From an uncultured Nitrososphaerales archaeon (GTDB lineage: Archaea > Thermoproteota > Nitrososphaeria > Nitrososphaerales > Nitrososphaeraceae), in contig CAVOHZ010000010.1 of assembly GCA_963695855.1 (NCBI GenBank), positions 128,001 to 192,000 of the forward strand: a stretch of 64,000 nucleotides of DNA, in the 5' to 3' direction. Below, piece after piece: positions 12,450-45,771 of the stretch. The notes under the pieces are model-generated. The model worked only from the letters and a program-made list of their open reading frames with translations. It had not been told where the DNA came from and made no database searches. Every line of letters starts with the position of its first letter. Position 1 is the first letter of the stretch. The position numbers and the translations under genes were made by a program.

Positions 12450-12725
12450 TATTTATTTGACTAAACTATAAATATATTAGCAATTCTCATATTTATTAGA
12501 AAAAATTTGTTATATTCTTTTTTTTATATAATATTATATAATTTAGTATTTTTTACTTTTAATATAACGTATATAGATGACTAGAACTCTTGAATGGTAT
12601 GTACGCTAGATTCATCATCACTAGAAAATATTATATTTAATATGTTTATTCTTCTGGCTCTGTAGGTGAAATGTTCGACAGAGCTAACATTCAAGAAGAA
12701 AGCCACTACCAATACTCTTGCAAAT

Positions 12726-13754
12726 ATGTATGCGGCATTAGATTTAGGACAGAAAAACATTCAGGCAGTATTGAAAAATAAAGATGGTAAGATTATAAAG
12801 GAAAATAAAATACAGCGTAATACCAAAACAATACTAGAATTTCTTGATAATAGTAACAAGAATCATAATAATATTGATATTGTAATGGAGTCTGGTTACA
12901 ACTATCAATATCTATATGATCTTTTACAAGATGAAGGTTATAATGTAAAAGTAGCACATCCACTAATGGTCAAGGCAATAGCATATGCTAAAGTCAAGAC
13001 AGATAAAGTAGATGCTAGAATATTAGCAGATCTACTAAGAATGGATATGATACCAGAATGTTATATACCTAATAAAGATATAAGAAATTTACGAGATCTA
13101 GTTAGACGCAGATACTATTTTGTCAGTATTCGAACAATGTTCAAAAACAAAGCACATGTTGAGATGAGTAAAAGATGGTTAGATGCTAATGTGACTAATA
13201 ATATAACAACAACAATGATTAAAAATGATCCATTTTCTAAAAAAGGAAAATGTCATTTACGTTCACTGGGAATACATGCATTAGATGATTGCCTTGATAC
13301 CATAGATTTTCTAGATAGAAAAATAAAAGAGTTGGATACAGAAATAAAGAAATTGGCAATAGAAGATAAATACTCTAAACATCTTATGACAATTCCAGGT
13401 ATATCTTACTATGCAGCTCTTCTAATATCAAGCGAGATAGCAGATATTAACAGGTTTCCAGACTATGAACATCTGTGTTCTTATGCTAGATTAGTACCTG
13501 GTACATATCAATCTGGAAATACATCATTCTCAAAAACAGACAAAAAACAAGGGAGCAAAATGCTAAACTGGATTATGGTACAGTGTACTCATACACATGT
13601 ACGTTATTGCCAATCATCGATAACAGTACATTACAACAAGATAAAGAATAGAAAGAGAAATAACAAAATTGCTATAATTGCAGCAGCAAGAAAATTAATG
13701 CGTGTGATATATGTTATGCTAAAGGAAGATCGTCCCTTTAGACTGGATGAATAA
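12726..13754 (+). CDS. IS110-family transposase/recombinase
   Basis: DEDD residues in ALDLG, VMESG and KTDKVDA; TIPGI; YQSG catalytic Ser; AAARKL. ATG at 12726 preferred over GTG at 12666. Confidence 0.95.
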   Translation: MYAALDLGQKNIQAVLKNKDGKIIKENKIQRNTKTILEFLDNSNKNHNNIDIVMESGYNYQYLYDLLQDEGYNVKVAHPLMVKAIAYAKVKTDKVDARILADLLRMDMIPECYIPNKDIRNLRDLVRRRYYFVSIRTMFKNKAHVEMSKRWLDANVTNNITTTMIKNDPFSKKGKCHLRSLGIHALDDCLDTIDFLDRKIKELDTEIKKLAIEDKYSKHLMTIPGISYYAALLISSEIADINRFPDYEHLCSYARLVPGTYQSGNTSFSKTDKKQGSKMLNWIMVQCTHTHVRYCQSSITVHYNKIKNRKRNNKIAIIAAARKLMRVIYVMLKEDRPFRLDE

Positions 13755-13766
13755 TAATATAGTATA

Positions 13767-13900
13767 GGACCTCTTGGTTTCTTGCATCGTCATATTGTTA
13801 TTATTATATGATAAGTATGATGGATGCCATCTGTAGGTTAGGTCTGGCTACTACTAGCGCAAAGCCACGGTGCACTATTGGTGCGTATGGGAGAATGCTA
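13767..13900 (+). ncRNA. Predicted bridge RNA (seekRNA) of the IS110 element
   Basis: Two stem/internal-loop/hairpin units; loop sequences TGGTTTCT, TCTGTAGGT and ATGGGAGAA match target and donor junctions. RNA ends approximate. Confidence 0.82.
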
Positions 13901-13986
13901 TTATTCATCAGTTAATCATATTAGGAACGAGTATTATATGAACATGGGAGAAACCATCATAGCTAGCAACATTCTACAGTTAATTA

Positions 13987-14988
13987 TTGAACAAACAACA
14001 ATCAAAATATGTTAGATTAGCAGATCAACTATTACGTATTCTCAAACATTGCAGAATTCCATTATATTTGCATAGAAAGAGCAACCACATTTACACAGTA
14101 TGGCAACACATAGTACTTGTTACAATAAGACAGTATGAAGGTAAGAGTTATCGAATGTTTACAGACTGGCTTGTTGAAGCATACTATTTGAGATTGTTTT
14201 TACAACTATCCAAAATACCACATTATACAACCTTACAAAAATTCACTGATAGAATCAACATCATGAAGCTTGGAAAGATAATCTCATCATTTATCCTCTT
14301 TACAGGTACAAGACACATATTTGCTGGAATAGATGCAACTGGATTCAAAATAACATATGCGTCAGAATATTATACGAATAGAGCCAAATTGAGAAGGAAG
14401 AAATATGCTAAATTATCTATTGGTGCAGATGTTCTAAAACAGATAATCTGCAAGGTCAAGGTAAGACGAGCTCCAACAACAAGACATGACAATATGGATT
14501 TCAAACCTATTGTAACAAAAATATCAAAAATAAAACCATTATCGGTAGTTGTAGCGGATAAAGCATATGATAGCGAAGATAACCATGTACTTGTAAGAGA
14601 GAAACTACATGGATTCAGCATCATGCCTCCAAGATATGAACAAGTACCAGTATGGAAAACTCGTGGTAAATATAGAAAGGAGATGAAACGTGGATACAAC
14701 AAGATTCTATACAATCAAAGAAACAAGGATGAAACTATGGTATCTGTCATAAAAAGACTATTTGGGGAACATATCACATCCAAACTTGTGAGAATGCAAA
14801 ATAGAGAATTGACATTCAGATGTATAGCATACAATACTCACAGAATGGTGAAGTTGGTTGTTATAGTAATGGTTTCTACACAGCGATTCTTCTACAAATT
14901 CACATATATTCAGGAACTGATATTGATGTGCTTGAAGCAAACTCTCGTACTACGTCTTCAGTTTCTCTGTATGGTAAATGAAAGTTAA
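13987..14988 (+). CDS. IS5-family-like DDE transposase (frame reads through the right TIR)
   Basis: GIDATGF, VADKAYDSE and YNQRNKDETMVSVIKRLFG (Y-x2-R-x3-E-x6-K). Confidence 0.88.
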   Translation: MNKQQSKYVRLADQLLRILKHCRIPLYLHRKSNHIYTVWQHIVLVTIRQYEGKSYRMFTDWLVEAYYLRLFLQLSKIPHYTTLQKFTDRINIMKLGKIISSFILFTGTRHIFAGIDATGFKITYASEYYTNRAKLRRKKYAKLSIGADVLKQIICKVKVRRAPTTRHDNMDFKPIVTKISKIKPLSVVVADKAYDSEDNHVLVREKLHGFSIMPPRYEQVPVWKTRGKYRKEMKRGYNKILYNQRNKDETMVSVIKRLFGEHITSKLVRMQNRELTFRCIAYNTHRMVKLVVIVMVSTQRFFYKFTYIQELILMCLKQTLVLRLQFLCMVNES

Positions 14989-15557
14989 AACTCATATAAT
15001 TAAGTAACTTGATCGTTGATTCTGGATATACGAACATTCCATCTTTTCGCCTTCATTCATATTTACAAGTTCTGTATTCCAGTTATCGATAACAAAAAAA
15101 TCAAGTAACATCTCTGCTGTCTTTATCAGAGATTCATTACCAGAGATTCATTATATTTCGTTCAGCTAGTCACATAATATACTAGAATACGTTAGTTAAA
15201 CGTATTAGGAATGACAATTTGCACGGAGCAAGAGATCCACTAGTTATAAAATTGATTGAAAATACTTTATAATAAGCACAAAGTATGGGAGATATATTTG
15301 TATAACAATCATCTAAAAAATTCATAAATTCAAAAGTTAGCATTTAAATTGCAAGAGACAAGATTATATGTCTATCATCATATAAAATGTACCTAATTAC
15401 TAAAATACTTGAAAACACAACATAATATAATATTGGTCCAAATTAAAAAATATTATATATTTTTGTAACTATTATTGGTTCTGAAAATTGAGATAGTAAA
15501 AATTCGTCTAATAATCCTTCCTATCTCTGATATACTTTAAATTAAAATAATAAGATA

Positions 15558-16025
15558 ATGAACTTTTTCAAAAACAGTCCAATGCTTTTTGCTACTGTAA
15601 TGGTAGCGGCAAGTGTTTTGGCTCTAATGACACCATCAGTTACGACAAATGCGCATGCTGTACCCTATGGGACAAATGCGCATGCTGTATCCTATGGCAG
15701 CGATTTCAACGATCAATATAGCTATGGATATGGAGATAAATCTCGATATAACGATGATAAATATAGCTATGACGATCCAAGAGATAAAAGTGTAAGTGTC
15801 CAAGAAATAAAATGTCAAAACAAAAATGTCAATGTGAATGGAATAGATATCACTGAAATACCTCACGATACTACAACAACAGATGAATTACAAGCAAATG
15901 AACAAGGTCCAAATGGAGGACAAAATGGTAACGATTTTGACAAGATAAACTTTGACAGGAACTTGGTGAATATCTGTCTAAACGTGAATGTTAATAATCA
16001 AGAAGAAGGACCACCACCAGCTTAG
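15558..16025 (+). CDS. Secreted hypothetical protein, two-Cys Asn-rich family
   Basis: Signal peptide; duplicated TNAHAV(P/S)YG; KCQNKNVNVNG...NICLNVNVNN. Confidence 0.75.
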   Translation: MNFFKNSPMLFATVMVAASVLALMTPSVTTNAHAVPYGTNAHAVSYGSDFNDQYSYGYGDKSRYNDDKYSYDDPRDKSVSVQEIKCQNKNVNVNGIDITEIPHDTTTTDELQANEQGPNGGQNGNDFDKINFDRNLVNICLNVNVNNQEEGPPPA

Positions 16026-16282
16026 TGGGCCTATGTAAGTATCAGTAATGATGTTTACATTCAATCATTTTTTTTTTGGTGAGCAAAATACATGTTTTCA
16101 AATTTGTCTTTTATACTATCTATAGTTTTAATTCTGTAAACTAATTTTGGAAATAAAAGGATAGACGTGAAGTAAAAAAATATTTTTTGCTAAAATATCA
16201 AATAAGGGTCTAAAAGAAAGGTTAATAATATATAAAATAAATTTACTTTCAATTTCCTTCTGCCACTTTTTTTCATTGATCT

Positions 16283-17626: not shown

Positions 17627-17874
17627 CCGAATGTTTCAACATTTGTCTTATTTATAATATTAATGGATTAAACGGAAACCACAACTGCAATTCTATTTAT
17701 TAGAGCCAGAATTAAAAAATTATGCCACAAGATATTCAAAAAAGATTTCTTAAATAAGATATCTAACTTTGTTCTAATTCGCAAACATTTTTCGTTCAAA
17801 TATTTATAAAGTTAATTTACTTTATAAGAAGGAATTTGTGAATTAACAAAAAAAATAACAACACTCCGTACCTT

Positions 17875-18141
17875 CTATCTTTTAGTCCTTTTCTCGTACA
17901 TCTTGAGAATTTGTTGGATCGTTCCATCCATGTCCTCTTCTAGAACCTGAGGAGTTACTGATATTTTCAGCAAGCTATTAATGGTCGTTGAAATTTCCGA
18001 GCTCACCTCATCAAAACTATCCATATCGCTATAACTTTCTTGATATAATCTTCTCAGTTTCATTGCATTTAACTGAGTCTGATCATTTAACGCAATGACA
18101 TATTCTCTATTATTGACAGTGATATTCTTTTCTTCATTCAT
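17875..18141 (-). CDS. Small hypothetical protein
   Basis: Clean 88-aa ORF with plausible composition. Confidence 0.7.
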   Translation of the reverse strand: MNEEKNITVNNREYVIALNDQTQLNAMKLRRLYQESYSDMDSFDEVSSEISTTINSLLKISVTPQVLEEDMDGTIQQILKMYEKRTKR

Positions 18142-21140: not shown

Positions 21141-22315
21141 TCATATTATTTTATATTTTTTGCCCAATGTTTCTAGACATGTTAATACATATTCTAATTT
21201 ATTTTTTTCTATATGTCGATTAAGAGATATTCTTAGGCGAGATTCACCGAACTTTACAGTAGGATACCTTATGGCTTGTACAAGATCCCTTGTTTAAATA
21301 GATCATCAGAAAATCTGACAGCTAGTTTCTCATTGCCAATTATTATTGGCACGATCTGACTGGAACTCGATCCTGTGTTGAATCCTAATTTCTTTAATTC
21401 TCTCAAGAACCAATGTATTTTAGTAAAGAAATCGACTTGCAAAACGGGATTTTTCTTAAGGATCGAAATGGCGTTAATTGCAGAGACGCACAAGTGTCCA
21501 GGGATCGCCGAAGTATAGATAAACTGCCTAGATCGATTTACAAGGAGATTTCTTATCATATTAGAAGATGCGACGTAACCGCCGAAACATCCCAGTCCTT
21601 TGCTAAGACTACTGATATGAATATCTACGTCTTTTTCCACACCAAAGTACTCAGGAATTCCTCCCCAATTCCCTTGCTTACCAAAGACGAAATCGCCATG
21701 TGCATCATCGACAACAAGAATCACATCGTATCGTTTGGATAGTTCTACAAGATGGTCCAGTTTTGCTAAATCGCCATCCATGCTGAAAACACCCTCTGTA
21801 ATTACGATGCTTTTACCTTTTGTTTTTTTTAGTTTTCCTTGAAGGTCATCAGGATCATTGTGATTGAAAATAAAAACATTCTTGTTTGTTTTTGATATTT
21901 TACAGGCATCTATTATACTTGCATGGTTCAGTTCATCACTAAATATTTTATGCTCTCCTGTAGCAATTGCAGAAATTGCTCCAAGATTTGCCATATATCC
22001 TGTAGGATATACTAAAGCAGACTCCGAGCCTCGATGTAAAGCAAGAATTTCTTCAAGTTCGACAATAGCAATATCATTTCCTGATAAGAGGCGTGAACTA
22101 CAAGGAGAAATCTGCTTTAAAGACCCTTTCGTTTTTTCAACTATAATTTTATTTTGTGATAACCCAAGATAGTCATTAGAACATAGATTAATTACCTTCT
22201 TTCCGTTGATGTAAAAATCATTTTCTCTTACTTGTGTTGTTAATAGTCTTCGATATATGTTGTTCCTTTTAAAATCTTCCAGTTGAGCCTTAACATGCTC
22301 ATACTTTGAGGCCAA
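21141..22315 (-). CDS. bioF: 8-amino-7-oxononanoate synthase (apparent 1-bp frameshift near 21282)
   Basis: SNDYLGL, DELNHASIID, EGVFSMDGD, DDAHG, SLSKGLG; conserved C-terminus VQAIRYPTV..RLRISL continues in another frame to TGA at 21141. Confidence 0.9.
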
Positions 22316-23270
22316 TTTCTTTTATCATTTGAATATCTTTATTGTGTCTGTTTCCGCCTGTAGTAAGATATCCACCAGTAATTATACCATTAGCTCCTGC
22401 CTGAAGAACAAATTTTCCATTGTCCTCAAAATGAAATTCCCTTCCTCCGGCAATTTTCAAGATAGTCTTTGGCATGATAAATCTCCAAACAGCAATGGTC
22501 CTTATTACTTCCTCATTAGATATTGGATTTTGAATTCCCAGCGGCGTTCCCTCTCGCGCAATCAACACATTTACCGGAACCTCATCAGGTTCAAGTTCAG
22601 CAAGCGCAAAGGCCAATTCAAGCCTTTGTCTTGGCGTTTCACCCATTCCAATGATCCCGCCACAGCAGAGTTCAAGTCCAGCGTCTTTCACTATTTTAGC
22701 TGTATTTACTCGGTCCTCATAATCATGGCTCCTACATATTTGTGAAAAATAGCTTTTTGATGTCTCTAAATTATGGTTATATCTCTTTACCCCCAAAGAT
22801 TTGAGTATACTGGCTCGTTGAGGAGTCATAAATCCCAGGGATGTATTTACTTCAATTCCAACCCTATTCTTAATTTCTGTTATTGACTTGCAAATGTGTT
22901 GAAAATCTTTTTCGGGAGGAGATCGATAGGCACAAACAAGACAGAAACTATTGGAACCCTCATCTTTCGCATCTTGTGCTTTTTCTACCAAAGTCTCCGT
23001 TGGTAACAGGGTATATTTTGATATTCCAGTATCGTAAAATGATGATTGTGCACAGAACGAGCAATCTTCTGGACAATTACCCGATTTTGCATTTACTAAG
23101 GATTCGACATCTACCCGGTCACCATTAAATTGCCTGGTAATCTCGTTGGCACATCTTGCCAGAGTCATCATATCTCTTGTATTCAATAATGATTCTGCAT
23201 CTTCAAATGTCATTTGGCCACCATTCAGAACCTTGTTCATAACTTCCTCAGGTGATCTCGAATCTCTCAT
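22299..23270 (-). CDS. bioB: Biotin synthase
   Basis: Radical-SAM CPEDCSFCAQS, YNHNLETS, CCGGIIGMGE, TGGYLTT; start may be 23270 or 23321. Confidence 0.95.
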   Translation of the reverse strand: MRDSRSPEEVMNKVLNGGQMTFEDAESLLNTRDMMTLARCANEITRQFNGDRVDVESLVNAKSGNCPEDCSFCAQSSFYDTGISKYTLLPTETLVEKAQDAKDEGSNSFCLVCAYRSPPEKDFQHICKSITEIKNRVGIEVNTSLGFMTPQRASILKSLGVKRYNHNLETSKSYFSQICRSHDYEDRVNTAKIVKDAGLELCCGGIIGMGETPRQRLELAFALAELEPDEVPVNVLIAREGTPLGIQNPISNEEVIRTIAVWRFIMPKTILKIAGGREFHFEDNGKFVLQAGANGIITGGYLTTGGNRHNKDIQMIKEIGLKV

Positions 23271-23676
23271 AACATGATAATTTTTAAATCCTATAATTAA
23301 TTCTTGTTCTCCATAGACCAAAATACATGATGAATTTGGTAGGAACCTGAATATCTATCAACTACATCAGAATATTGCGCAAAAAGATCTCAAAAATGCA
23401 TACTTGTTATGCTTTTTTAGGGGGTAAAATGATATAAAATGGCAGATTATCAATAGATGAATAAATGTGCGTTTTTCGTTATTTTCGGTCATCCAAAAAA
23501 ATGCTCAAAAAAGGACCCTTTTATGATACGTCTGAAAAATAGTATCTTTTTTTTACCTTTAAAATGGTTCCAATTAATGATTAAAATCGTTTAAAAAATA
23601 TTACCTTTTTTATACTGTTTGTCTTGTTTTTTTAACATTTGAATATAGATATCATTTTTAATGTTTATTTCGGTAT

Positions 23677-24309
23677 ATGCGAAAATATGCTATAGCATAT
23701 CTTAGGGTAAGTACTGAAGAACAGACTGTACAGAATCAAAAGATTGCAATTACCAAATGGGCTAGCGATCATGATTATCAGATGTTGTATTTTTTTGAAG
23801 ATCCTGCAGTAAGTGGAAAAACACCTGCCACTTCTAGAAAGGGTTTTCAAGATTTGATGGAATTTGTAAGGGTATCAAAAGTGGATGCGGTTTTGGTCTA
23901 CGAGCTGTCGAGGGTAGGAAGGACTTTTTGGGATACACTCGACGCAATAAAGGTTATCGAAGAACATAGTCCGCTGATATCCTGTTCGCCTAGAGAGTCA
24001 TTTTTGCAGACCACAGAACCAAGCATCAGAAAACTGATGATAAGTATCCTAACATGGGTTGCTGAAAGAGAAAGAGAGATGCTTGTTCAACGTACAAAGG
24101 ATGGGATGAATAGAGCAAGAATTGCTGGAAAGGAAATCGGAAGACCGGAAAAGGTTATTGACAAAAACAACCTGATTACCCTATTAGCTGAAAATATTTC
24201 AAGAGCAAAAATCGCAAGGGAACTGGGTATATCAAAGGCTACTCTTTACAAGGAGTTTAGGAGGTTAAATATACATTATAATGATTCTAAAACTATCTTT
24301 CGTCAATAG
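23677..24309 (+). CDS. Serine recombinase (resolvase/invertase family) with C-terminal HTH
   Basis: YLRVSTEEQ (catalytic Ser), ELSRVGR, AEREREMLVQRTKDG, GRP, IARELGISKATLY. Confidence 0.93.
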   Translation: MRKYAIAYLRVSTEEQTVQNQKIAITKWASDHDYQMLYFFEDPAVSGKTPATSRKGFQDLMEFVRVSKVDAVLVYELSRVGRTFWDTLDAIKVIEEHSPLISCSPRESFLQTTEPSIRKLMISILTWVAEREREMLVQRTKDGMNRARIAGKEIGRPEKVIDKNNLITLLAENISRAKIARELGISKATLYKEFRRLNIHYNDSKTIFRQ

Positions 24310-25719
24310 GTTTTATTATATCAAGCAGAGTATCAATCAGAACATCTAGTTGGTTTCTTGGCATAGCAAGAGGGGGAATCAGTGTAACAATATTTCCAAG
24401 AGATCTAAGGAAAACTCCTCGCTTCATTGATTCTCTCATTATATAGTTACTAAGATCAAGACCATCAATATAAGACAGTGGTTGTTTTTTTCTCTTTTCT
24501 TGGGGCATTTTATTTTCTCTTGTTAATTCTAACCCTACTAAAAGACCTTTATGTCTAATTTTATGGACAGATTTATAAACTTCAAATTCTTTCAATCTTT
24601 TTTTAATATGCTTACTATTGTCTCTTATCTTTTGAATTAGATTACTTTTCTCATACATTTCCAAATTCGCAATACAAGCTGCACATCCAGCGGGATGACC
24701 AGTGTATGTATGTCCGTGGAATAATTGTTTATTTTCATCATATTCACTTAGAAATTCTTTATAAATTTCATCTGTGGTCAATGTCACTGCAATAGGGAAA
24801 TATCCTCCATTCAACGCCTTTCCATAGCAGACAATATCAGGCTTGGAAGATTGTGCGAGATATTCTATCATATTACCTAACCTGCCAAACCCTGTGGCAA
24901 TTTCATCTAAGATAAGTAGAACATCATATTTTTTACATAGATCGGAGACTCTTTTTTGGTATGTGTTAGGATAAATGGATACTCCGCCTGCTATTTGTGC
25001 CCCACTTTCCATCACAAGTCCAGCTATATTTTTTGAATTTTCTTTAAGTATGTGTTCTGTTTTTTCTATACATATATCAACTATCTCTGAATCTGTCAGA
25101 TCGTTGTCTAAATCATTTTCAAATGATGACGGCGCAGGAGTTCTAAAAGTTTTAATTAGTAATGATTTATAGGGATTGAAATATCTATCTACGTAACCCA
25201 TAGACATGGTCGCGATTGTATCTCCATGATAACCATTCTCTAATGAAAGAAATCTGTTCTTTTTTGGAAATTCTTTATTTTTCCAATACTGAACTCCCAT
25301 CTTCAATGCTACTTCCATAGCCGTCGAACCGTTATCGGAATAAAAGATTTTGTCCATCCCCTTGGTCAATTTTAAAAGTTTAGCAGCAAGTACTATTGAG
25401 GGTTTATTACCTAATCCAAATAGAGTAGAATGAGGAAGTTCCTGAAACTGTCTTCTGATTGCTTCAATAACAGGGTTTGAATCATACCCCCATACGCTGC
25501 ACCACATATTCGCAATTCCATCAAGGTACTTTTTTCCATTCTCACTGACAAGATAAAATCCATCTCCATGAGTTATTACTACATTATCTTGCTTGTTCCA
25601 AATTCGCATCTGAGTATAAGGATGCCAAACGTATGTCTTATCAAGATAAACTAATGATTTGTTAATATCTGTATCATTTATTTTTGGATTTTTTTTGTAA
25701 CTTCCTTTTTTTTATCCAT
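24293..25719 (-). CDS. bioA: Adenosylmethionine-8-amino-7-oxononanoate aminotransferase (ATG 25719 out of frame by one base in an A8 run)
   Basis: VWHPYTQM lies upstream of the called ORF; SDNGSTAMEVALK, YHGDT, DEIATGFGR, GKAL, HGHTYTG. Confidence 0.93.
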
Positions 25720-25802: not shown

Positions 25803-25810
25803 ACAAGATG

Positions 25811-35188: not shown

Positions 35189-35902
35189 ATGAGAGATAAA
35201 GGTGTATTTATTATAGGAACCGATACAGAAATAGGAAAAACCACAATAGCTGCAGGATTAGGAAATTTATTAATCAAAAATGGATTTAGAGTCGGAGTGA
35301 TGAAGCCATTTGCTGCTGACTCCAAGCAATATTCAAAAGAATTTCTATCGAGGGACACAAAAATATTGAAAGAAGCTACTAAAAGCCAAGAACATAATGA
35401 TATCATAAATCCATTTTTTTATAACATCCCTAGTGCTCCATATTTAGTATCAAAAATTCAGAAAAATTGCAAAGAAATAGATCCAAAAAAAATTCTAGAT
35501 ATATTTCATGAACTTGCAAAAAAAAATGAATTCGTTATAGTCGAGGGAATGGGTGGTTTGATGGTTCCTTTGACAAAGAATCTGTATATTGCAGATGTTG
35601 TTAAGATGTTAAATATTCCCGTTATTTTGATAATGTCTAATAAAATTGGAACTATAAATCATATAGTGATGACCTCTTTTATGTGTAGACATTATAAGTT
35701 AAATGTTATAGGTATAATAGTTAATAATCTATTTAATTTTAAAGAAAGAAAATTTAGAATGGTTAACGCAGTATTACCTGAAACGGTCAAAGAACTGACC
35801 GGATATCCAATTCTGGCGGTTATTCCTTACATAAAAAGTCCTAATAAAGATAAAATAACCAAAATCTTAAAAAATACAAATATGGATAAACTATTTTTTT
35901 AA
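35189..35902 (+). CDS. bioD: Dethiobiotin synthase
   Basis: GTDTEIGKT P-loop, MKP, VEGMGGLMVP, GTINH. Confidence 0.94.
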   Translation: MRDKGVFIIGTDTEIGKTTIAAGLGNLLIKNGFRVGVMKPFAADSKQYSKEFLSRDTKILKEATKSQEHNDIINPFFYNIPSAPYLVSKIQKNCKEIDPKKILDIFHELAKKNEFVIVEGMGGLMVPLTKNLYIADVVKMLNIPVILIMSNKIGTINHIVMTSFMCRHYKLNVIGIIVNNLFNFKERKFRMVNAVLPETVKELTGYPILAVIPYIKSPNKDKITKILKNTNMDKLFF

Positions 35903-36577
35903 GATTGCCTAAATTTCTTTACTTGAATCTGAATTATTATTTTGTGTTTTACCCATAATTCTTTATCCACATGAAAATAAAGAAAATAGCAATTTTTACT
36001 GTTTTTATCTTGACAATTTTTATTAATAAAGGCGAAATCAAATACGTTATATTATTTGTAAGTGATCAGTGTTTTCTTGAAGATATCTTTGTCAATGTAG
36101 AACCTGAAAAATACAATTGTATTGCTTAGAAGATGTACTTTTAAGATGCTCTTTTGCTCCTATAGACAATTGTAGCTCTGAGTTATAGTCATATCGGTAA
36201 ATCCAGATCTATTTATTTATGGTTTAAAGTTATGTTCAACAATTTATTCTATTTTTGAAAATCAACGTATTAGTAAAAAAGAAAATTATTATTTTTCAAT
36301 TGTTGTAAAATTTCTTTTGTTCACATTTTTATTTATTGATATGTATAAATTAGAAGATGCAGGTGGGGTGAAAGTTTTTCTAATTCATATATTTTACTAT
36401 GGAAAATTACACTATAATAAATAAAATTCAATATAAATCAATCAGACAATAATCAAAAAATTGTATATGATATTTTTTTAAAAAAAATTGGAACCCAACT
36501 AACTTAATTTAGTTTAAAGATACAATTAGTTGAGTAATTAAAAAAAAATGGTATTGTTTGGTTCCTAGTTTATAGTA

Positions 36578-38149
36578 CTAGGGATAGGGAATTGGCAATA
36601 TGAATGGTACTTGTGATGTCGGATTTATTGGTGACTCAGTAGAAGGACGTTGTTCATTAGCAGAACTTAATATTCTAGTATCTTGTTGTTGTTGTTCTTG
36701 TTGTTGTTTTAATTGTTGTTGTTCTTGTTGTTGTTTTAATTGTTGTTGTTGCTTTAGTTTTTGTTGTAGGTGTAATTGTTTAAATTGTTGTTGTTCTTGT
36801 TGTTGTTTCAATTGTTGTTGTTGTTTTAGTTTTTGTTGTAGGTGTAATTGTTTAAATTGTTGTTGTTCTTGTTGTTGTTTTACAGGTTGTTCTTGTTGTT
36901 TTTGTTGCATTATTGCACTACCAGAATTCAATAGTCTAGTATCTTTTTGTTGTTGTTGTTGTTCTTGTTGTTGTTTCAATTGTTGTTGTTGTTTTAGTTT
37001 TTGTTGTAGGTGTAATTGTTTAAATTGTTGTTGTTCTTGTTGTTGTTTTACAGGTTGTTCTTGTTGTTTTTGTTGCATTATTGCACTACCAGAATTCAAT
37101 AGTCTAGTATCTTTTTGTTGTTGTTGTTCTTGTTGTTGTTTTACAGGTTGTTCTTGTTGTTTTTGTTGCATTATTGCACTACCAGAATTCAATAGTCTAG
37201 TATCTTTTTGTTGTTGTTGTTCTTGTTGTTGTTTTACAGGTTGTTCTTGTTGTTTTTGTTGCATTATTGCACTACCAGAATTCAATAGTCTAGTATCTTT
37301 TTGTTGTTGTTGTTGTTCTTGTTGTTGTTTTAATTGTTGTTGTTGTTTTATTTTTTCTTGTAGTTGTTGTAGAGGTTGTTCTTGTTGTTGTTTTAATTGT
37401 TGTTGTTGTTTTATTTTTTCTTGTAGTTGTTGTAGAGGTTGTTCTTGTTGTTGTTGCATTACTGCTGAAGTACTATCTGTAGATTTTATATCAGATTGAC
37501 TTACTTCTTTTGCATCATTAGTTACATCAGCACTGTCATTGCCAAGTACTTCTGTTGTATTAATATTGTCATTTGTGAAAGTCTCTGAATCAGTATCGTG
37601 GGATGGACTAAGATAGTGGTTCTCATTATTACATTTAACTATTATTTTTGTGTCTGATCCTAAATAGTATACTTGAGTATTTCCAGGATTGCTATTGAAT
37701 TCTTCAGATGAAATTAATTGCGTAGCCTCATCATTAGCCTTTTTTAAAGCTAATGCATTATCTAAAATAGGTTTAATGGTATCAATATCTTCTATTCCAT
37801 CAGCATTGATATTTCGATTGTTGCAGTTTACTATTTTTACTATTTTTACCTTTTTAATTGGTTTATCGTAATCTTCTTCATATTTTGTGTATGAACCATA
37901 TTTGTCTGATTCTTCCATGTAATCATCATATTTCTCTTTATCTTTTCCTTCATGTTTTTTATAATCTATACTAGAATCATAGCCATAATCATCATATCGT
38001 TTTTCTTTGTATTTTCCATCATCTCTTTCCTGATACTTATCCTTTTCTTCCTTGGCATCTGCGTCAATAACTGATATTGATGCTGTCGTAATAGTGCCAG
38101 TCAATAAGATCGCTATTAAAAGTACGGTAGTAAACGTCGACTTTTGCAT
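36578..38149 (-). CDS. Secreted Gln-rich protein, two-Cys Asn-rich family
   Basis: Signal peptide (MQKSTF..ADA), Y/D/K-rich segment, NCNNRNINADG...VKCNNEN, long poly-Q repeats. Confidence 0.8.
   Translation of the reverse strand: MQKSTFTTVLLIAILLTGTITTASISVIDADAKEEKDKYQERDDGKYKEKRYDDYGYDSSIDYKKHEGKDKEKYDDYMEESDKYGSYTKYEEDYDKPIKKVKIVKIVNCNNRNINADGIEDIDTIKPILDNALALKKANDEATQLISSEEFNSNPGNTQVYYLGSDTKIIVKCNNENHYLSPSHDTDSETFTNDNINTTEVLGNDSADVTNDAKEVSQSDIKSTDSTSAVMQQQQEQPLQQLQEKIKQQQQLKQQQEQPLQQLQEKIKQQQQLKQQQEQQQQQKDTRLLNSGSAIMQQKQQEQPVKQQQEQQQQKDTRLLNSGSAIMQQKQQEQPVKQQQEQQQQKDTRLLNSGSAIMQQKQQEQPVKQQQEQQQFKQLHLQQKLKQQQQLKQQQEQQQQQKDTRLLNSGSAIMQQKQQEQPVKQQQEQQQFKQLHLQQKLKQQQQLKQQQEQQQFKQLHLQQKLKQQQQLKQQQEQQQLKQQQEQQQQDTRILSSANEQRPSTESPINPTSQVPFILPIPYP
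36670..37460. repeat. Gln-coding composite tandem repeats
   Basis: (TTG)n tracts with recurring KDTRLLNSGSAIMQQKQQEQPVK and FKQLHLQQKLK units. Confidence 0.9.
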
Positions 38150-39343
38150 ATTGACAGTAGGATTATCACATTTATTTAGAGTGTGCATCATTGTAATATT
38201 ATTTTACTCTATTTCTTGCCATCAGTTAATTGTTATTATTTATTGTTTCAAGATTATGATGAATAACAATCTTTATTTTAAAGCATAATTTTTAAAATAA
38301 TACTGTTAGAAAGGTTTTTTTGGCCCTGTTAACTTAAGGATTAAAGTAGTTCTACATTCTACTTTTCTATTATGTTCTGTGCTCAATTTTTCATAGGTTT
38401 TTCGATTTATTTAATTAACTTTCCTTAAATCAACATCCATGAAAATCTATCTGTATGCTGGTTATCTTTTTTATCCTGTTTAGCCATATTTTGTTGCGTT
38501 TTTCTATCTATTAAGCATTGTTAACAATAGCCTCCGCTATATATGGCATCCTTGTTCTCTGATGTAGTCGTATTGTTGTTTTTGTTGTCTAATTATCTTT
38601 CTTTTTCTTGAGATCCAATCTTGTTCAGTCTCTCCAGTTTCTGTTCATATCTAGTCCTGTTCATGTATCTATACGATTGGTGTCTTGTTAGCATGTACCA
38701 TATTATAACAAGCACCTCCTTTGCTGTTGCAACTATTGCTTTCCCATGTCCCTTTCTCTGTTTGATTCTTTCATAGAATGTTCTCATGTGACGGTCATGT
38801 CTTACTGCGGATAATGAACACTGTACCAGTATCCATCTCAATAGTGGTGATCCCTGTTTGGTTATTCTACCTGTTTTTGTTTTTCCAGATGATTCTCTTG
38901 TTGATGGAGATAATCCTGCATAACTAACAAGTTTCCATGGTGTTGCAAATCTTTTGATATCCACTATTTCTGTTGATATCAGCATTGCAGAAAATACGTC
39001 TATTCCTGTCATGCTGAGAAGTATCTTTACATCTTGACTATCCTTCCATGCGTATTTTGCTATCTCTTTTGATACTATTTCTATCTGGTTATCTATCGAT
39101 TCTATGGATGTTAGTGTTGTATTCAGTATTATCCTGTCTATTGGTGAAACTGAGAGTGATTTTAGCCACTCAGTTCCCGATCTACCGAATATGTCTGTCA
39201 GCTCTGTTCTGTACTCATATTTGTCTAAAATAGCATGTACCTTGTTTGCAAGTTTTGTCTTGGTTCTAGACAAGACTATTCTATGTCTGACCAGACTTCT
39301 TTTTTCTCTGAATTCCTTTCTTTACAGGTACATATGACTCGTA

Positions 39344-40373
39344 TGCTCTGTTGCATGATTCATTAATTTATTGATAATAATTCTGTGGTTGTAGTCTTTT
39401 ATGTTGTGGATATAAACAAATTGTATAATGATGCTTTCAACATTATCTCTTTTACCATGTTTGGATATTTAACAGCAGATACATATTCACCAAACATTCT
39501 CTTCATAGAGGAAAAGACAGATTCTACAACCCATCTCTTGCCATAGCTAACGCTATCCTTCCATTTATTAAAATCAGTTTTCTGTTCTACTACTCCAAGA
39601 TTTCTTTTATAGTGATTGTCATTTCTGATTCTAGCATTCTTTCTTACCTTTATTGCTGGTTTAATATTGTTGAATGAAAGAAATTGGAATATCTTGTTGT
39701 TATCGTATGAACCATCTGCTATCACAGTATTTACATCGATATTCTGTTTTCTGACTATATCATGTACGAGTATAGGTAATACTTTTGAATCATGTACTTT
39801 TTCTGTAGTAACGTTTAGAGATAGAATCTTTGCTTTCTTCTCATTCTTTTTTCTACCGCTTATATCTACTGCTACATGAATCTTGAGGTATCCTTTTCTT
39901 TTCTACTTTTACAGTGCCACTTCTTATGACGCATCCACTCTCCTCTATTTGTTACCTTTATTCCTGTAGAATCAATTGCTATAATAACATCATTACCTCC
40001 TAATTTGTTGTTGTTAACATGAATATCAAGTTTGTTTATTCTTCTATCTATTGTACTATAATCGGGAATTGATGGGATTTTATTTTCAGCATGAGCTCTT
40101 ACTATACCTTCAGTCTGCCTGAATGGAAGATGAAAATACACTCTTGCATATCCAAGTAATAAGAGAAATGAGTTGGGATAGTGATGTGGTTCTCCAACTT
40201 TACCTTTGTTCATTTCTTTCAATTCATTATCCCAATTATCTATAATATCAAATCCAAGCATAATTTCTCCACGCTTAACAAGAGATTGATTATATTGTCT
40301 CCAGTTTAACACATAATATGAATATAACAGGTTAGCTAAATAGATTAGCAGTAGTGAATCATGCAACAAACTA
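39344..40373 (-). mobile_element. IS5-family (IS903-like) insertion sequence
   Basis: TIR core TGTTGCATGATTC / GAATCATGCAACA; target duplication GACTCGTA at 39336-39343 and 40374-40381. Confidence 0.9.
39399..40312 (-). pseudogene. IS5/IS903-like transposase, frameshift near 39900
   Basis: WRQYNQSLVKRGE, AIDSTGIKVTNRGEW, IADGSYD and YGKRWVVESVFSSMKR in two frames. Confidence 0.88.
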
Positions 40374-40749
40374 GACTCGTATACCAATCAATCCAGTTCT
40401 CAGCAGATCAGATAGTATACATGCGTCAAGTTTATCTGATTTTATCTTTGCTTGTGCTATTATCTTTGTTCTGTATGGATTTGCTAGTACTGTATCTATT
40501 CCATTATCTTCCAGCGTATCATGTATTCTCATCCACATGTTTCCTGTAGATTCCAGTACTGCATTACATTTTTTTGTTCCATGATTGTGTATCCTTTCAA
40601 TCAGTTCTAATATTCCATCAGAATTGTTACCAAAGAAGAATTCATTCAGTGTCTTGCCTTTATCATCTTTTAGTGCTGCCCTGCATTTTCTCTTTCCAAC
40701 ATCTATTCCAAGATGATTCAATTATTTTTATTCACCTTCTTTTTTTATT

Positions 40750-40874
40750 TGTTGGCTAACAGGTGGCAAACATCCATCCACCCTCGAAGGGTACTATGAT
40801 AGCCACTTCACAGATACGGTTCAGTCAGAGCCTCACTCTCATACGGAGTATGTTAATTTTGAACCTAGCCAACA
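40750..40874 (-). ncRNA. Predicted bridge RNA of the second IS110 element (upstream of transposase)
   Basis: 9-bp closing stem TGTTGGCTA/TAGCCAACA encloses two stem/internal-loop/hairpin units whose loops match the element junctions. Confidence 0.85.
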
Positions 40875-41695
40875 TACAGTAATGAAACAGACTAAAAGAT
40901 TTTCATATCGTCAGAGCCCTAGAAAGACTAGTAAATTAATTTTTATATAAATAATTATTTCTCTTAATAAAATAAATTTGACTAGATGGCTATAACGGCC
41001 AACATATGCATGGATAATATAATGATATAGATTTTGAAAGATATCAAAGGTAGAAATAGTCTCAGATTATATGGTATATTTAATGGATAAAGGATGTGTA
41101 CTTTGTATTTTTAAACTGTGATCTTTTACTAACTTTGCAAAATTTATTTATTTATGAGAAGTGATCATAATATACAGTTCAAAAAAGGGTTTTGATAAAA
41201 ATTGATTAGAATCCAAGATTATTACTATTTTGAAATCAATTCATTATTATCTCATCATTCATAGTTAATATAATGAAAAAGAACAGGATAACATGATCTT
41301 TCTGGATATAATGTATATATAATATTTATATATCGAACCAAAAAATTTGTATAAATATTATTGTTAGAACAAAAAGATGAGATTACAGCAAGACAAATAT
41401 CCTCTATGACTACTAGATCACTTTTAAAAATTGAGATACATTACATCATATTTATTTTTCTCTATCCTTATTGTGTACCCATTTTGACGTAATAAATATT
41501 GTTTTAATGTGTGTACGCTATGTAATTTGAATACCAGAAAGTATAAGACAATAAATTTTTCAACCTATTCCAAAATTAGTAGCTTAATAAATAATTACTA
41601 CTAACTTGATAATAAAACTATGGAATATAAAAAAAGAAAAAAGAAAGATCCCTTCATAGTTCAATAATATTCTTTAGCCTACAGCCATTCCCGTC

Positions 41696-42415
41696 TAGAT
41701 TTTAAGTATTTTAGCTTTTAATAAACTAAGGAGAGCCTCTGCAACTTGATCTTGTTCTTCAGCATCTAAATTTTGCAATACATCGTTAATTGTTTTAATC
41801 GTTTCTATTAGCGTGGCAGGACCATCAGCTTTAACTACATCAATAATATTACATATATCACCTAGGGAAAAACTTTCAATTATATATATCTGTAAAGTCT
41901 AGCAAAACTCCACCAACTCGTATAAATGAGTCTGGTAAACTACCGGTGGATGTGATAAGCTGTTCCTCCAAATCTGCACTTAGTTTTTCAAGGCAGGCTT
42001 CACAACCTAATACTTCTTCTGGTTGCGGTGCTAAAGTTCTTTCATTTTGTTCTGGTTGTTTTACTCAATATTTCACAGGATCATTAAAGTTTGTACATAT
42101 AACTGTAAGCTGATCATCATCTGAAACCCAATTATTTCCTCCATCATTTTGGACATTATTTGATTCAGTTAGCTTTAATAGATCATTAGTTACCTCTGGT
42201 ATTATATCATCATTTAATATTTCAATATTGAAATTTCCGATATTACACTCATTTTTCTCCACTATCACTTTTTCTTTGTAATTGTCCATTCCATATTCTT
42301 GTTGTGCTTGCGATTCCATCATAAAAGATAGAGAAGATACAACAAATATTCCCGCAACTAAGACGGTTGACAAAAATACTGAACTATATTTTCTAATTAC
42401 GGATTTTTTCATCAT
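41696..42415 (-). pseudogene. Secreted two-Cys Asn-rich family protein, broken after codon 116
   Basis: SVFLSTVLVAG leader, ECNIGNFNI..VICTNFND; coding-like sequence (LGCEACLEKL.., DICNIID..) continues in other frames. Confidence 0.65.
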
Positions 42416-42767
42416 TTAACTTTACCAATATAAAGTATATCTAGAATACGAATGATTGATAGAGAGAGATAAAGTATTACATTTTAATTTGTAAAAAGGA
42501 TAGAAGAATGTAGAATAATATTTTGAAATATCTTTAGATAACATTATACTCTGGAATTCACTAATTTTTTACTGTATAATTCAATTCAGATCATTTTCAA
42601 ATCCGTTAACTTCACTCATCTAAAAGTTAAACATCAAACAAATATTTAGCTGTAAAAAAATCTATTAGTATTAAAAAAATAAAAAAAAGTTAAGTTTTTT
42701 TTAAATTATTTAATTTTTAGGATGTTTGTTTGACTGGCACTGTTATTTACGTGGCATCAATCCTAGA

Positions 42768-43241
42768 CTAGTTTACGGATCCAGCGGTCACGGAATTTTC
42801 ATTTACGGATCCAACGGTCCCGAAATTTTCATTGTCGCCAAAGTTAATACATATATTTTCAATATCAAGTTCTAATCCACTGCCACCATTGCTCTCTATT
42901 CCTACATCATTACTCCCAATAGCAAATGATGCATCCATTTCTTCTCCTATTGAATTGATATTTTCATCACTTGATGCTGCTGAATTGGTATCTGCCTGTG
43001 TTAGCATAGAACTAAGTATTGAAGCCTCAAATTCTGAAAATTCGCCAATATTGTAATTGCTAACAGAACATTCGGCTTTATTGTATTTCCAACCTTGTTT
43101 CTCATACTTCATGTCTTTCTCATACTTCCTGTCTTCGTCTGCAAATGCAAGAGAGGGAGAAGCTATTGCAATAACTCCTGCCACTAATACAGCTGCTAAA
43201 AAAATTGAACTACTTTTGTGTAATTTGCTGTTGTTGTTCAT
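42768..43241 (-). CDS. Secreted two-Cys Asn-rich family protein
   Basis: MNNNSKLHKSSSIFLAAVLVAGVIAIASPSLAFA leader; ECSVSNYNI..NICINFGDNENF. Confidence 0.78.
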   Translation of the reverse strand: MNNNSKLHKSSSIFLAAVLVAGVIAIASPSLAFADEDRKYEKDMKYEKQGWKYNKAECSVSNYNIGEFSEFEASILSSMLTQADTNSAASSDENINSIGEEMDASFAIGSNDVGIESNGGSGLELDIENICINFGDNENFGTVGSVNENSVTAGSVN

Positions 43242-43827
43242 TGTTAGATAAGAATGAACATACATATATTTGAAATACGAATGATTAGTAACTACTTTTT
43301 GAAGCTATTTTTCTAATTGTTGATTTTTCATAAATAAATTTGATAAGATAATCAGAGAAATTTATCTTTATTTTATTTTTAACAATTAAAAGTATTTAAT
43401 AAAAACCTGTAGCCAGAAAATAAAAAAGGAAAACTAGTAGAATGTTAGATTACATTCATCTTATAATCATTAAAGCTTAGTTATTTTGGATATATATAAT
43501 ATCATTCTTTCATTTTTTAATCAACTTCTTTAGAAAATATAGTATATATTTTCTATCTTTGTTATAAGCAATTTAATAGAGTTGAGTTCAACAACAAAAA
43601 CATGTTTAGATATATATCAGAAACACAGAACTTTGTTTTGTTTAGACAAATTCAAAATAGAAATGTTGACAACTACCAACTTGAATGACAGTTTCATATA
43701 TTAGGAATGCAATATTTTTTTATTTATAAACCGTATATTGTAGAAATCTTTGTATAATTTCCGTAGCCATCCATATTTTACTTTGACCTATAACGATTAT
43801 TGACGCATTGGAAATATCTTAAAATTT

Positions 43828-44195
43828 GGCCCTGTTAAGTTATGGATAAAGTAATAGATATGTTCTACTTTTTTTATATTATGTTCTGTGCTCAATTTCA
43901 GAAGAATTTTGCCTTGTTGCACAAGTCATTTAGATAATCATTTATCTCTGTCTTGCAATACTAATTGATAATTATGTAATGACTATACTCTGGAACCAAT
44001 TATACAACGATACCTTCAGCATTACCTCCCTTACTATATTTTCAAATCTAATATAATAGTAGTAACATATTCTCCAAACATTCTCTTGATACAAGAGAAG
44101 ATAGTTTCTACAATCCATCTCTAGCGATAGCTAACGTTATCCTTCCATTGTTGTAGAACAGTTTTCTGTGATTGTACAGCCTTGTTTCTGAGATA
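43828..44195. mobile_element. IS6-MITE left end abutting an IS903-like transposase C-terminal remnant
   Basis: 43828-43898 resembles 38322-38388; TIR-like GCCTTGTTGCA at 43911; minus-strand WKDNVSY..RWIVETIFSCIKRMFGEYV. Confidence 0.7.
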
Positions 44196-44403
44196 GCTAA
44201 GTTTAATAAGATTCACAAAATAAGCTCTATGTTTCATATGATTAGATATCTATAATAATTAGTTCATTTACGATCCATATCTTCTTAACTATATATATCA
44301 AATTAAAGTAGTATAACAGAATGCTAATGTATGAATATAATAATTCAATAAAATTTAAAATTCTTATCGAGTAGATCATATTATAATGTATAATTTAATC
44401 TAT

Positions 44404-44925
44404 TTAATTTGGCAAATATCGAGCTGCCACATATACTGGAATATGAATAGTAAATTTATCTAATTCTGAATCATAAATTGTATAAGTAGAGCTTAAATCA
44501 ATATCATCATAATTTAGATTAAATATTTGATTATTTACCTTGACATTCTTTGCTTGCATAATAGGAAAGTCTATTCTTAACTTATTTTTACCATTTTCAT
44601 AAATGTTCTCTAATTCTGTCTTTACTTTTATATCCGTTGCAAATATCTGAAAACCTAGTAAATTATATTCTAAAACAGGAATTAAATATTCTACTGGCTG
44701 ATTCGTATTTAATACCATATTCTTGATAGTATCGTTCGGAAAGATTTGATTGGAATTGATATCTATCATAAATTCCAAATTGCTAGTTGTTAATTTATTT
44801 TTTAAATTGTTGAGTATATTATCAAAAATGTTAGTATCAGTATTGAAGTATTGGGCATGTACGATAGATGTATTATTTGTACCCATTATTAATACAAATA
44901 AAAAAATTAAAATTATAATCTTCAT
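44404..44925 (-). CDS. Secreted hypothetical protein
   Basis: Signal peptide ending VHA; 173 aa. Confidence 0.65.
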   Translation of the reverse strand: MKIIILIFLFVLIMGTNNTSIVHAQYFNTDTNIFDNILNNLKNKLTTSNLEFMIDINSNQIFPNDTIKNMVLNTNQPVEYLIPVLEYNLLGFQIFATDIKVKTELENIYENGKNKLRIDFPIMQAKNVKVNNQIFNLNYDDIDLSSTYTIYDSELDKFTIHIPVYVAARYLPN

Positions 44926-45038
44926 ATATAATTGAGATGATGTTTTAATTTCTTATATATTCTTTTGATTTTTACCAGATGATAATTTTTGTTCAAAAAT
45001 CGAGTATTATAATAATCAATTACCTCGATATCTTCTAA

Positions 45039-45771
45039 GGTTCTTTTAAGTTAAGCAGCAAAAGCTATAGATAGGCATGTTCTCTTTATGGTATGAAAGT
45101 TAGATTTGAAAGAAAACAGAACAGAAGGTCCACTTTTATCACAGTGTATTTTCTTTATATCTATGCTTTCTTTATACTTGATCTAAGTTTAAGAAATATT
45201 TCCAAGGCATTAGTGATGTTTAGAGATGAGAAGAGAAGTTATGCTTCTGTTTGGAACTGGATTCAAAGGTTTTGATCCTCAGATCTATAAAAGAAAAACA
45301 GTGCCTGCTTTTATAATAGACGAATCACTTATTCAATCAGGTAAGCAGTATTTCTGGCTATGGATATATGTATCCAACCAATTCACAGTTCAGTGCTTAG
45401 AATATACATTCAAAGGGAAGAAATATTTGATGATTGCTGAAAAATTTATTGGATCTACTGTATGAAACCATGGAAAACATATTGTATACACAGAGATGGA
45501 GGTACATGACATGATGAAGCTTGTAATGTCTTGAGATTAAAACATTATTTAGATTCTGCGTTAGAGAAAAGTTATATGGAAATACTCAATCGGTAATTTA
45601 AGGACAGAATAGAGAGTTTTGATGACTAGTATCCACTTATGCAAGAGGAATGTAATCTATTACAGGTACATAACGAGATACAATACTTTGTATCCATGTG
45701 TAATGATACAATAACAAATAATAATGATTTTGAGTTAGAGGAAGTAAATATTGCCTTAAATTAACAGAGCT
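45039..45771 (+). mobile_element. Degraded IS6-family element
   Basis: Ends GGTTCTTTTAAGTTAAG ... CCTTAAATTAACAGAGCT; fragments RSYASVWNWIQRF, FIIDESLIQSGKQYFWLW, DGGT, FKDRIESFDD. Confidence 0.8.

Follow-up and report, generated by a model that had tools for sequence, protein, structure and literature searches.

Two IS1111-type elements with predicted guide RNAs lie in the inverted-repeat ends of IS5- and IS6-type elements of a Nitrososphaerales archaeon

The 64,000-nucleotide stretch of DNA analysed here (the window; positions 128,001 to 192,000 of contig CAVOHZ010000010.1, GenBank assembly GCA_963695855.1) comes from an uncultured Nitrososphaerales archaeon of a low-GC genus whose genomes are rich in insertion sequences (ISs), and it is part of a 3.55-Mb assembly of 11 contigs. 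It holds two elements of the IS110 family, each with a DEDD transposase and a non-coding RNA region. We consider it highly probable that both are IS1111-type elements whose guide RNAs are programmed to the outermost inverted-repeat bases of resident elements of the DDE transposase class, and that they represent two of four such lineages, with four targets, in this genome. The mechanism is very probably the known seekRNA or bridge RNA mechanism in its IS1111 form. A preliminary description of the window had rebuilt the two empty sites, GGCTCTGT-AG-AAACCAT and GGCTC-TG-TTGATTTAAGG, and both are present where it placed them.

Element 1 (lineage A; 12664..13950, plus strand) carries its two-nucleotide core, AG, at both junctions (12664-12665 and 13949-13950) and is inserted in an IS5-family element on the same strand. 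The outer 8 nt of the left inverted repeat of this host, GGCTCTGT (12656..12663, +), form the left target half. The right flank, AAACCAT (13951-13957, +), opens the host body and right inverted repeat (13951..14885, +), which match PF01609 and NF033579 (161 bits, cut-off 140); the IS5-type DDE frame (13987-14988, +) extends beyond the end of the IS. The 8-bp target duplication of the host, ATTCTTCT (left copy 12648..12655, right copy 14886-14893, +), encloses the tip along with both element 1 and the IS5 body, and the IS5 element therefore arrived first. The rebuilt empty site, GGCTCTGTAGAAACCAT, is the uninterrupted left end of vacant copies of this same IS5-family element (C2:69020 and C3:379971), and it mirrors the host's own right end, ATGGTTTCTACACAGC, about 930 bp downstream. 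The transposase of element 1 (12666..13754, +; 362 aa, with a GTG start right after the core) has the domains PF01548 (E 4.9e-24) and PF02371 (E 2.8e-18), scores 218 bits on NF033542 against a cut-off of 140, and aligns to the IS621 chain 8wt6 (E 4e-13). Downstream of the gene lies the non-coding RNA region (13755..13948, +), recognised by exact guide matches, its fold and left-guide covariation in relatives. Within it, the 5′ target guide TGGTTT-CT (13775-13782), the 3′ target guide TCTGT-AG-GT (13830-13838) and the 3′ donor guide ATGGG-AG-AA (13887-13895), all on the plus strand, match at every position (8/8, 9/9 and 9/9).

The genome has three full copies of element 1, 99.5-99.9% identical, and all three occupy the same base of an IS5 left inverted repeat, with GGCTCTGT-AG before and AG-AAACCAT after. 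Such identical junctions on both sides are what one would also see if the element and its host IS travelled together, the shared junctions being copied from one event. The hosts, however, tell otherwise. The occupied IS5 bodies are mutually only 86-89% identical, each rebuilt IS5 is bracketed by its own 8-9 bp duplication (ATTCTTCT, ATTCTATAC and GAAGGACG), and two of the occupied copies have vacant near-twins (97.6% and 98.5% identity). We therefore give composite movement next to no probability. Inserts so alike in hosts so divergent, each with a duplication of its own, establish separate insertion events: the IS5 copies landed first and diverged, and element 1 entered each of them later. 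Five IS5 left ends are perfect for the lineage A guide, three of them occupied; all six right ends are one base off the guide-defined 13-mer, and none is occupied. Frames of about 299 aa are retained in the three occupied copies. Greater decay of occupied than of vacant IS5 copies was sought and was not found (frames of 298-299 aa versus 253-299 aa). The retained frames give no evidence either way on immobilisation.

Element 2 (lineage B; 38434..40913, core TG at 40913-40912 and 38435-38434) lies in a 119-bp miniature inverted-repeat transposable element (MITE) with IS6-type inverted repeats; this element, its host and the features named below are all on the minus strand. The outer 5 nt of the MITE repeat, GGCTC (40914..40918, read 40918-40914), form the left target half, and TTGATTTAAGG (38433-38423) is the right target half. 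The rest of the MITE occupies 38322..38433, its other inverted repeat ending at 38322, and related 117-bp MITE copies are found elsewhere. The guide RNA of element 2 stands upstream of the gene (40722..40911), where guide matches, fold and covariation place it; the 5′ target guide AATTAA-CA (40858-40851), the 3′ target guide GGCTC-TG-AC (40832-40824) and the 3′ donor guide ATGGA-TG-TT (40777-40769) match at 7/8, 9/9 and 9/9 positions. With these guide words, the RNA geometry given in the preliminary description holds for both elements. The same account missed a 1029-bp IS5-family element (39345..40373; PF13737, PF01609, NF033579) with a 9-bp duplication, ATACGAGTC (40374-40382 and 39336-39344). 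Two IS5-type DDE frames thereby split the transposase gene into an N-terminal part (40371-40721) and a C-terminal part (38593..39273), with PF02371 and PF01548 across the two halves and 140.4 bits on NF033542 (cut-off 140). This copy of element 2 is dead because of the interruption.

The 1029-bp insertion with its 9-bp duplication means that DDE elements also disrupt guided elements. Together with a 906-bp IS in a lineage D copy, it lends some colour to the reverse order of events, in which the IS5 and IS6 elements would have inserted beside IS110-type ends. Yet the host duplications lie outside the displaced repeat tip and not at the IS110-type junction, and the joined flanks restore an inverted repeat identical to that of vacant copies. 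We find this order barely credible. Insertion of the IS110-type elements into pre-existing inverted repeats is the reading that we retain. A vacant, near-perfect site for element 2, AGCTC-TG-TTAATTT (45758..45771, minus strand, read 45771-45758), which had been pointed out earlier, proved to be the end of a decayed IS6-like copy. This copy reaches to about 45170 and is 79.6% identical, over 617 aligned positions, to an IS6-like copy; the one mismatch of the site is at its first base, and the same AGCTC is found at an occupied site elsewhere.

To place these two insertions in the genome, we located IS110-family loci by tblastn across the whole assembly. There are 16 loci in four lineages: three full copies and three fragments of A, five full copies of B, two full copies and one partial copy of C, and one copy of D with a second interrupted by another IS. 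Intact copies of B include those at C8:48400 and C10:929325. Lineage B has in addition one 45-bp stub and seven transposase-less mini copies of 319-353 bp (C3:465565, C3:37669, C8:114012, C8:~187950, C10:1354508, C10:1407618 and C10:1746449), which keep a complete left-end guide RNA and the two ends of the element and have no gene. The loose motif search for B ends gave mostly chance matches, and a match was kept only with the guide scaffold or a TG-TTAA flank. An insertion was counted for site rebuilding only where both junctions were readable (n=19), and for 17 of these 19 rebuilding yields the end of an identifiable IS or MITE. The insertion in the ends of other elements that was proposed for elements 1 and 2 thus extends to two further lineages, and a majority of IS110 insertions outside IS ends, the pattern that the preliminary description had named as contrary to its reading, was not found in this genome.

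Each lineage has its own target. That of lineage A is GGCTCTGT-AG-AAACCAT in an IS5-family element, that of B is GGCTC-TG-TTAAnTT in IS6-family elements and their MITEs, that of C is GCCTTGT-TG-CACAACT in a second IS5-family element of ~980 bp, and that of D is AAAGA[GT]C-TA-TAGCTGTG, ~25 nt inside a 723-bp IS6-family element. Assignment to IS5 is based on NF033579 and assignment to IS6 on PF13610 (38.5 bits, cut-off 27). Copies that share a single position and orientation within another mobile element's inverted repeat number 3/3 in A, 11/12 in B, 2/2 in C and 1/2 in D. The 12 copies of B (five full, seven mini) are all at GGnnC-TG-TT[AG]A. An IS6-type end forms the right flank in 11 of the 12; of these, 10 run on into repeated IS6-family or MITE sequence, and one has only 17 nt of the IS6-type repeat left before another IS truncates it. 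The hosts on the right flank are either 117-119-bp MITEs or ~720-bp elements that encode the 221-222-aa protein to which the PF13610 score belongs and whose best match is NF033587. The truncating IS is itself a high-copy element, present in 23 places (e.g. C8:376316 and C10:1356335); it starts AGCCTATCCCAAAAATAGATAGG and nearly always follows TTAG or TAAG.

The two C copies face each other and occupy both inverted repeats of one ~980-bp IS5-family element. A first C junction, with the core directly before TTGAATAC, was dropped, the rebuilt site being unlike the vacant copies; shifted by 3 nt according to the 7/3 end rule described below, the junction yielded a site identical to the ends of the ~980-bp element. 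For the first rebuilt empty site of D, BLAST returned no contiguous vacant copy in the genome. The rebuilt site of the copy D_1354k, AAAGA[GT]C-TA-TAGCTGTG, matches vacant IS6 copies in a search with the left-half pattern. A mini-B and a lineage D copy share one IS6-type end, at 5 nt and ~25 nt from the tip (C10:1354501-1356300 and C3:37270-37680). The 906-bp IS that splits a D copy is at C3:299297-300202.

The RNAs of these elements have a common layout, namely a 5′ guide with the core, 1 nt, a hairpin, 2 nt, and a 5-nt guide followed by the core and 2 handshake nt. The first target word is the complement of the core and right flank (top strand). The second joins the 5 nt that end the left flank to the 2-nt core and the element's opening 2 nt; the donor word runs from the final five bases of the element through the core into the right flank's first two bases. 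In lineage A the target loop reads TGGTTT-CT, 1 nt, hairpin, 2 nt, TCTGT-AG-GT, and the donor loop ends ATGGG-AG-AA. In lineage B the target loop has AATTAA-CA and then GGCTC-TG-AC, with a donor loop ending ATGGA-TG-TT, and in lineage C it has GTTGTG-CG and then CTTGT-TG-AA. The guide words are exact in A and exact or near-exact in B and C; the D 5′ guide must be offset by 2 nt, in a TATA run, to fit its site. The minimum-energy fold of the B RNA revealed an outer stem around two stems whose internal loops hold the guide words. RNAalifold, with 13 B sequences as input, gave 28 pairs, four of them with compensatory changes, and likewise placed the guides in two internal loops.

Guide and flank vary together. 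Among the B copies of this genome the guide takes the form AAAATTAACA, AAACTTAACA or AAAGTTAACA, and position five of the right flank (T, G or C) agrees in 9 of the 12 copies. One mini-B has GGTCC in both its left flank and its guide, where the others have GGCTC. The donor loop of B tracks the right end of the element, with ATAGA accompanying CATAGA and ATGGA accompanying CATGGA. We extended the comparison to a set of 17 lineage B elements, 12 from this genome and 5 from five other genomes of the genus. The five added elements contribute the flank variants GGTGC, GGCTG and GGTCC, and flank equals guide in four of them, the exception (L017) having the flank GGCTC and the guide GGCTG. Across the set, the left-flank word is exact to the guide in 14 of 17 elements (shuffled mean 8.2, P ~2e-4) and the right-flank word in 12 of 17 (shuffled mean 5.5, P ~5e-4), both P values being optimistic, as the shuffle test pools genomes and related copies. 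The complementarity of guide and flank and their covariation, which recurs in other genomes of the genus, are thereby established and support the RNA guidance that had been proposed. As a separate observation, the guide variant AAAGTTAACA occurs in five mini-B copies and in none of the full-length copies of this genome, and four of these five also have the distinct donor-guide variant ATAGA.

Covariation also bears on a further explanation, in which the insert spread among IS copies by homologous recombination or gene conversion and not by guided transposition. Repeated host DNA could indeed supply homology on the inner side of the insert. The outer side, however, shares only 5-8 nt, the hosts of B (MITEs and two IS6 types) have unrelated bodies with only the inverted repeat in common, and guide and flank variants change in step. 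We regard spread by recombination as highly improbable, and on host divergence, duplications and covariation we rejected it along with composite movement and the reverse order of insertion.

Elements 1 and 2 both have the IS110-family domains PF01548 (DEDD) and PF02371 (Transposase_20), those of element 2 in its two halves, and both transposase domains align to IS621. Their transposases are ~34% identical over ~220 aligned residues. The earlier label "unrelated" was therefore too strong, and the two are distant relatives that share IS1111-type end anatomy. The available part of Siddiquee et al. 2024 (PMC11187229) characterises IS1111-type elements by sub-terminal repeats with 7-nt and 3-nt extensions, a non-coding region that is usually downstream, and a top-strand complement that comes first. 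Sub-terminal repeats with a 7-nt extension on the left (one core copy counted) and a 3-nt extension on the right are found in all four lineages: AGGTGAA-ATGTTC / GAACAT-GGG in A, TGACGAT-ATGAAAATCT / AGATTTTCAT-GGA in B, TGAATAC-ATGTAAAAGTC / GACTTTTACAT-AGA in C and TAACTAT-ATGTGAAG / CTTCACAT-GGA in D. At 6 nt in A and 8 nt in D, the repeats fall short of the 11-13 nt given in that part of the paper. The complement of the top strand comes before the segment matching the bottom strand (offsets A 20/75, B 53/79, C 58/94, D relative 144/168). In all four lineages the guide order is the opposite of that in IS621, whose left target guide comes first and whose handshake follows the right guide. 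The non-coding RNA region is downstream of the gene in A and D and upstream in B and C. According to the same portion of PMC11187229, rare IS1111-type members with an upstream non-coding region exist, and B and C belong to this rare class; the available part of Durrant et al. 2024 places the RNA of IS1111 elements at the right end. The triplet RGT, which the preliminary description noted in the 5′ donor guide, is present before the donor hairpin in both window RNAs (GGT and AGT); it does not extend to a conserved feature, since relatives have AAT, ACT or AGT.

In the mechanism that we propose by analogy with IS621, ISEc11 and relatives, the RNA would be expressed and the element would excise as a circle. 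Strand exchange by the recombinase would then take place at the 2-nt core, with the circle junction and the target as partners, and would leave a copy of the core at either junction. In sequence, the 5′ RNA segment is complementary to the top strand of the core and right flank, the 3′ segment carries the left flank's final 5 nt, the core and the element's opening 2 nt, and the second RNA loop matches the element's own ends in like manner. The recombination chemistry would be that of the analogues.

IS4321 and IS5075 reportedly target the inverted repeats of another transposon, as Partridge and Hall are said to have described in 2003. They resemble the present elements in being of IS1111 type, with sub-terminal repeats and with one position and orientation inside the inverted repeat of another element, and both ends of one host can be occupied, as they are by lineage C here. 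They differ in being bacterial, with Tn3-family targets, whereas here an archaeon has four lineages in IS5 and IS6 elements and MITEs. The preliminary description cited this analogue, which stands as a precedent, but it did not name a further bacterial one: in the accessible part of Wachter et al. 2018 (PMC5896051), IS1111 of Coxiella burnetii inserts into the MITE QMITE2. There too, as that source describes it, a multi-copy MITE is the landing site, and of the type element of the group; the site is a palindrome of the repetitive extragenic palindrome (REP) kind inside the MITE, whereas here it is the outermost 5-8 nt (~25 nt for D) of an inverted repeat. What we describe is thus an archaeal extension of inverted-repeat targeting already known in bacteria; the kind itself is known.

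The seekRNA elements ISEc11, ISKpn4, ISPst6 and ISPa11, as far as PMC11187229 is available, share with the present lineages the DEDD transposase, the 7-nt and 3-nt extensions of the sub-terminal repeats, the top-strand complement 5′ of the bottom-strand match, and guides naturally reprogrammed from one relative to another. They differ from B and C, in which the guide RNA is upstream; within the available part of that paper only ISMtsp17 is so arranged in the IS1111 cluster, and ISHvo10 and ISAcp5 have long non-coding regions on both sides of the gene. The recombinase of IS621 shares the fold of those described here (8wt6, E 4e-13). Its RNA, in the accessible portion of Hiraizumi et al. 2024 (PMC11208158), has one loop for the target and another for the donor, with a core of 2 nt and 2-nt handshake positions that match the other partner. 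There the bottom-strand guide is first and the handshake follows the top-strand guide, whereas here the order is reversed and the handshake follows the bottom-strand guide. Archaeal IS110 homologues number 662 in the available part of one survey. Our literature search found no description of archaeal IS110-family elements aimed at IS ends, although such cases could already be among the supplementary target logos that Siddiquee et al. give for ~300 ISfinder entries, or in Durrant et al., Supplementary Table 5; a Nitrososphaera paper that names IS110 (PMC3379541) only lists, in its accessible part, a fosmid transposase and gives no target.

Relatives in other genomes retain the guide layout at changed sites. 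Six relatives of A in other Nitrososphaerota metagenome-assembled genomes (MAGs; best-segment identity 56-63%) have the left guides GGAAC, TTGAC or TTAAC. Their left flanks agree with the guide at 5/5 positions in two cases and at 4/5 in four, and their donor words track their right ends. An IS5 or IS6 transposase within 2.5 kb was found for none of these six distant relatives. In two other genomes, A-like left ends come after GGGCTTTTT-AG in one and TCTCTGT-AG in the other, and the contig of the former also has an IS5-type frame. Two C-like elements from two other genomes (L008 and L024) adjoin the same kind of IS5 end as C, and the flank of a third (L009) is unrecognised. A distant B-like element from another family of the order has the site GGTTC-TG-TAAAGTC and the guide GGTTC. 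The D relative (L003, in the sister genome G010) is inside an IS5-family transposase gene, between the codons for SVSY and GQKRW in a conserved motif and not in an inverted repeat; both of its guides are changed (TGACCA-TA and TAAGC-TA-AC) and fit GCGTTAGC-TA-TGGTCAGA. Because the six A relatives lack a nearby IS5 or IS6 transposase and the D relative sits in a transposase gene, the aiming at IS ends looks like repeated re-aiming within the low-GC genus and not like an old trait of each lineage. The habit that had been ascribed to an archaeal IS110 lineage thus holds for this genome and genus but not for the whole lineage. In a public MAG (L046), an A-type right end is followed by a second copy of the gene end and guide RNA, an apparent tandem partial duplication.

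The same relatives help to judge whether the protein, and not the RNA, reads the IS end directly, or reads a resident transposase bound there, with the RNA matches being incidental. All targets do have a GGCTCTGT-like or G..TGT-like tip, and our evidence is drawn from sequence alone. Covariation, however, is seen on both target sides and at the donor ends, relatives with changed guides are at unrelated sites, and a requirement for the RNA has been established by experiment for family members in the available parts of PMC11187229 and PMC11208160. We consider direct recognition unlikely by a wide measure.

The specificity of the guides was assessed with a genome-wide scan for exact matches to the guide-defined target words. 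All 28 matches (A 2, B 9, C 17) are in IS or MITE ends, nine B contexts having been assigned by eye from sequence recurring among copies. Ten one-mismatch A sites lie outside ISs, and all ten are empty. That perfect sites are exclusively in IS ends fits the "safe harbour" idea put forward earlier.

Several observations weigh against guided insertion into IS ends as set out above. Rfam has no RNA family for either non-coding region, the only match in the window being a tRNA. The guide match is inexact in 5 of the 17 right-flank and 3 of the 17 left-flank words of the B set, to which the optimism of the pooled shuffle test must be added. The mini-B at C3:465565 has a unique right flank and only a partial guide match, the right flank of the D copy at C3:298806 differs from that of the vacant IS6 site, and an old A fragment (C3:39402-39742) adjoins AAACCTTCC and not an IS5 body. 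Numerous perfect sites stand vacant, 17 of them for C, and targeting thus falls well short of saturation; a benefit to host or element finds no support here.

These observations leave room for targeting that is real but neutral. In such a case IS ends would merely be abundant and dispensable, the insertions would have no meaningful effect on the mobility of the host ISs, and "parasitism" would be a misnomer. We put the probability of this a little short of even. It is in keeping with the vacancy of most perfect sites, with the full-length frames in occupied IS5 copies, with the A relatives at non-IS sites elsewhere, and with the REP, attC and MITE sites that bacterial relatives use according to the available parts of PMC11187229 and PMC5896051. 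What speaks against it is that an insert 5-8 nt from the tip cuts the terminal bases off the inverted repeat and, judging from how DDE elements use their ends, should disable that end. In addition, four lineages on IS ends and one relative on an IS5 transposase gene suggest more than abundance.

We infer that multi-copy IS ends serve as harmless landing sites and that occupation disables the end concerned; the host ISs might then be immobilised, reversibly if excision is scarless. If occupation does disable ends and excision restores them, the four guided lineages, re-aimed at resident IS5 and IS6 ends, could form a transposon-against-transposon network in this genus and act as reversible brakes on IS5 and IS6 proliferation. 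This idea draws on the 5-nt guides that track the repeat variants GGCTC, GGTCC, GGTGC and GGCTG. As part of it, the ~330-bp transposase-less guide carriers may spread as RNA-guided MITEs, and DDE elements may break guided ones. We offer the network tentatively and think it rather unlikely.

The guided insertion of IS1111-type elements into IS ends in this genome and its relatives provides a clean natural data set for guide reprogramming in the group, with four lineages, single-base changes in guide and target, and changes in donor guides. The transposase-less copies that still have a guide add to this data set. Targeting of inverted repeats now includes an ammonia-oxidising archaeon as host, with IS5 and IS6 ends as the targets. 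For specialists, the interest lies in four lineages on four IS ends in one genome, in guide carriers without a transposase, and in upstream guides in IS1111-type elements. For annotation, nested guided insertions explain many "truncated" IS ends and short orphan repeats in these IS-rich genomes. Should occupied ends truly be disabled, the system would illustrate how mobile elements of one class can limit those of another.

Other features of the window were noted as well. Frames related to biotin synthesis stand between the elements, at 21269-25609 and 35189-35902; they comprise a radical-SAM protein with a BATS domain, class I/II and class III aminotransferases, and a dethiobiotin-synthetase-like AAA_26 protein. 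The tRNA match mentioned above, at 55177-55280 (minus strand), spans 104 nt against a model of 71 positions and is probably an intron-containing tRNA gene. The interval 36001-40000 has a strong strand bias, with a GC skew of +0.24 and an AT skew of -0.33, over a 537-aa frame (36578-38191, minus strand).

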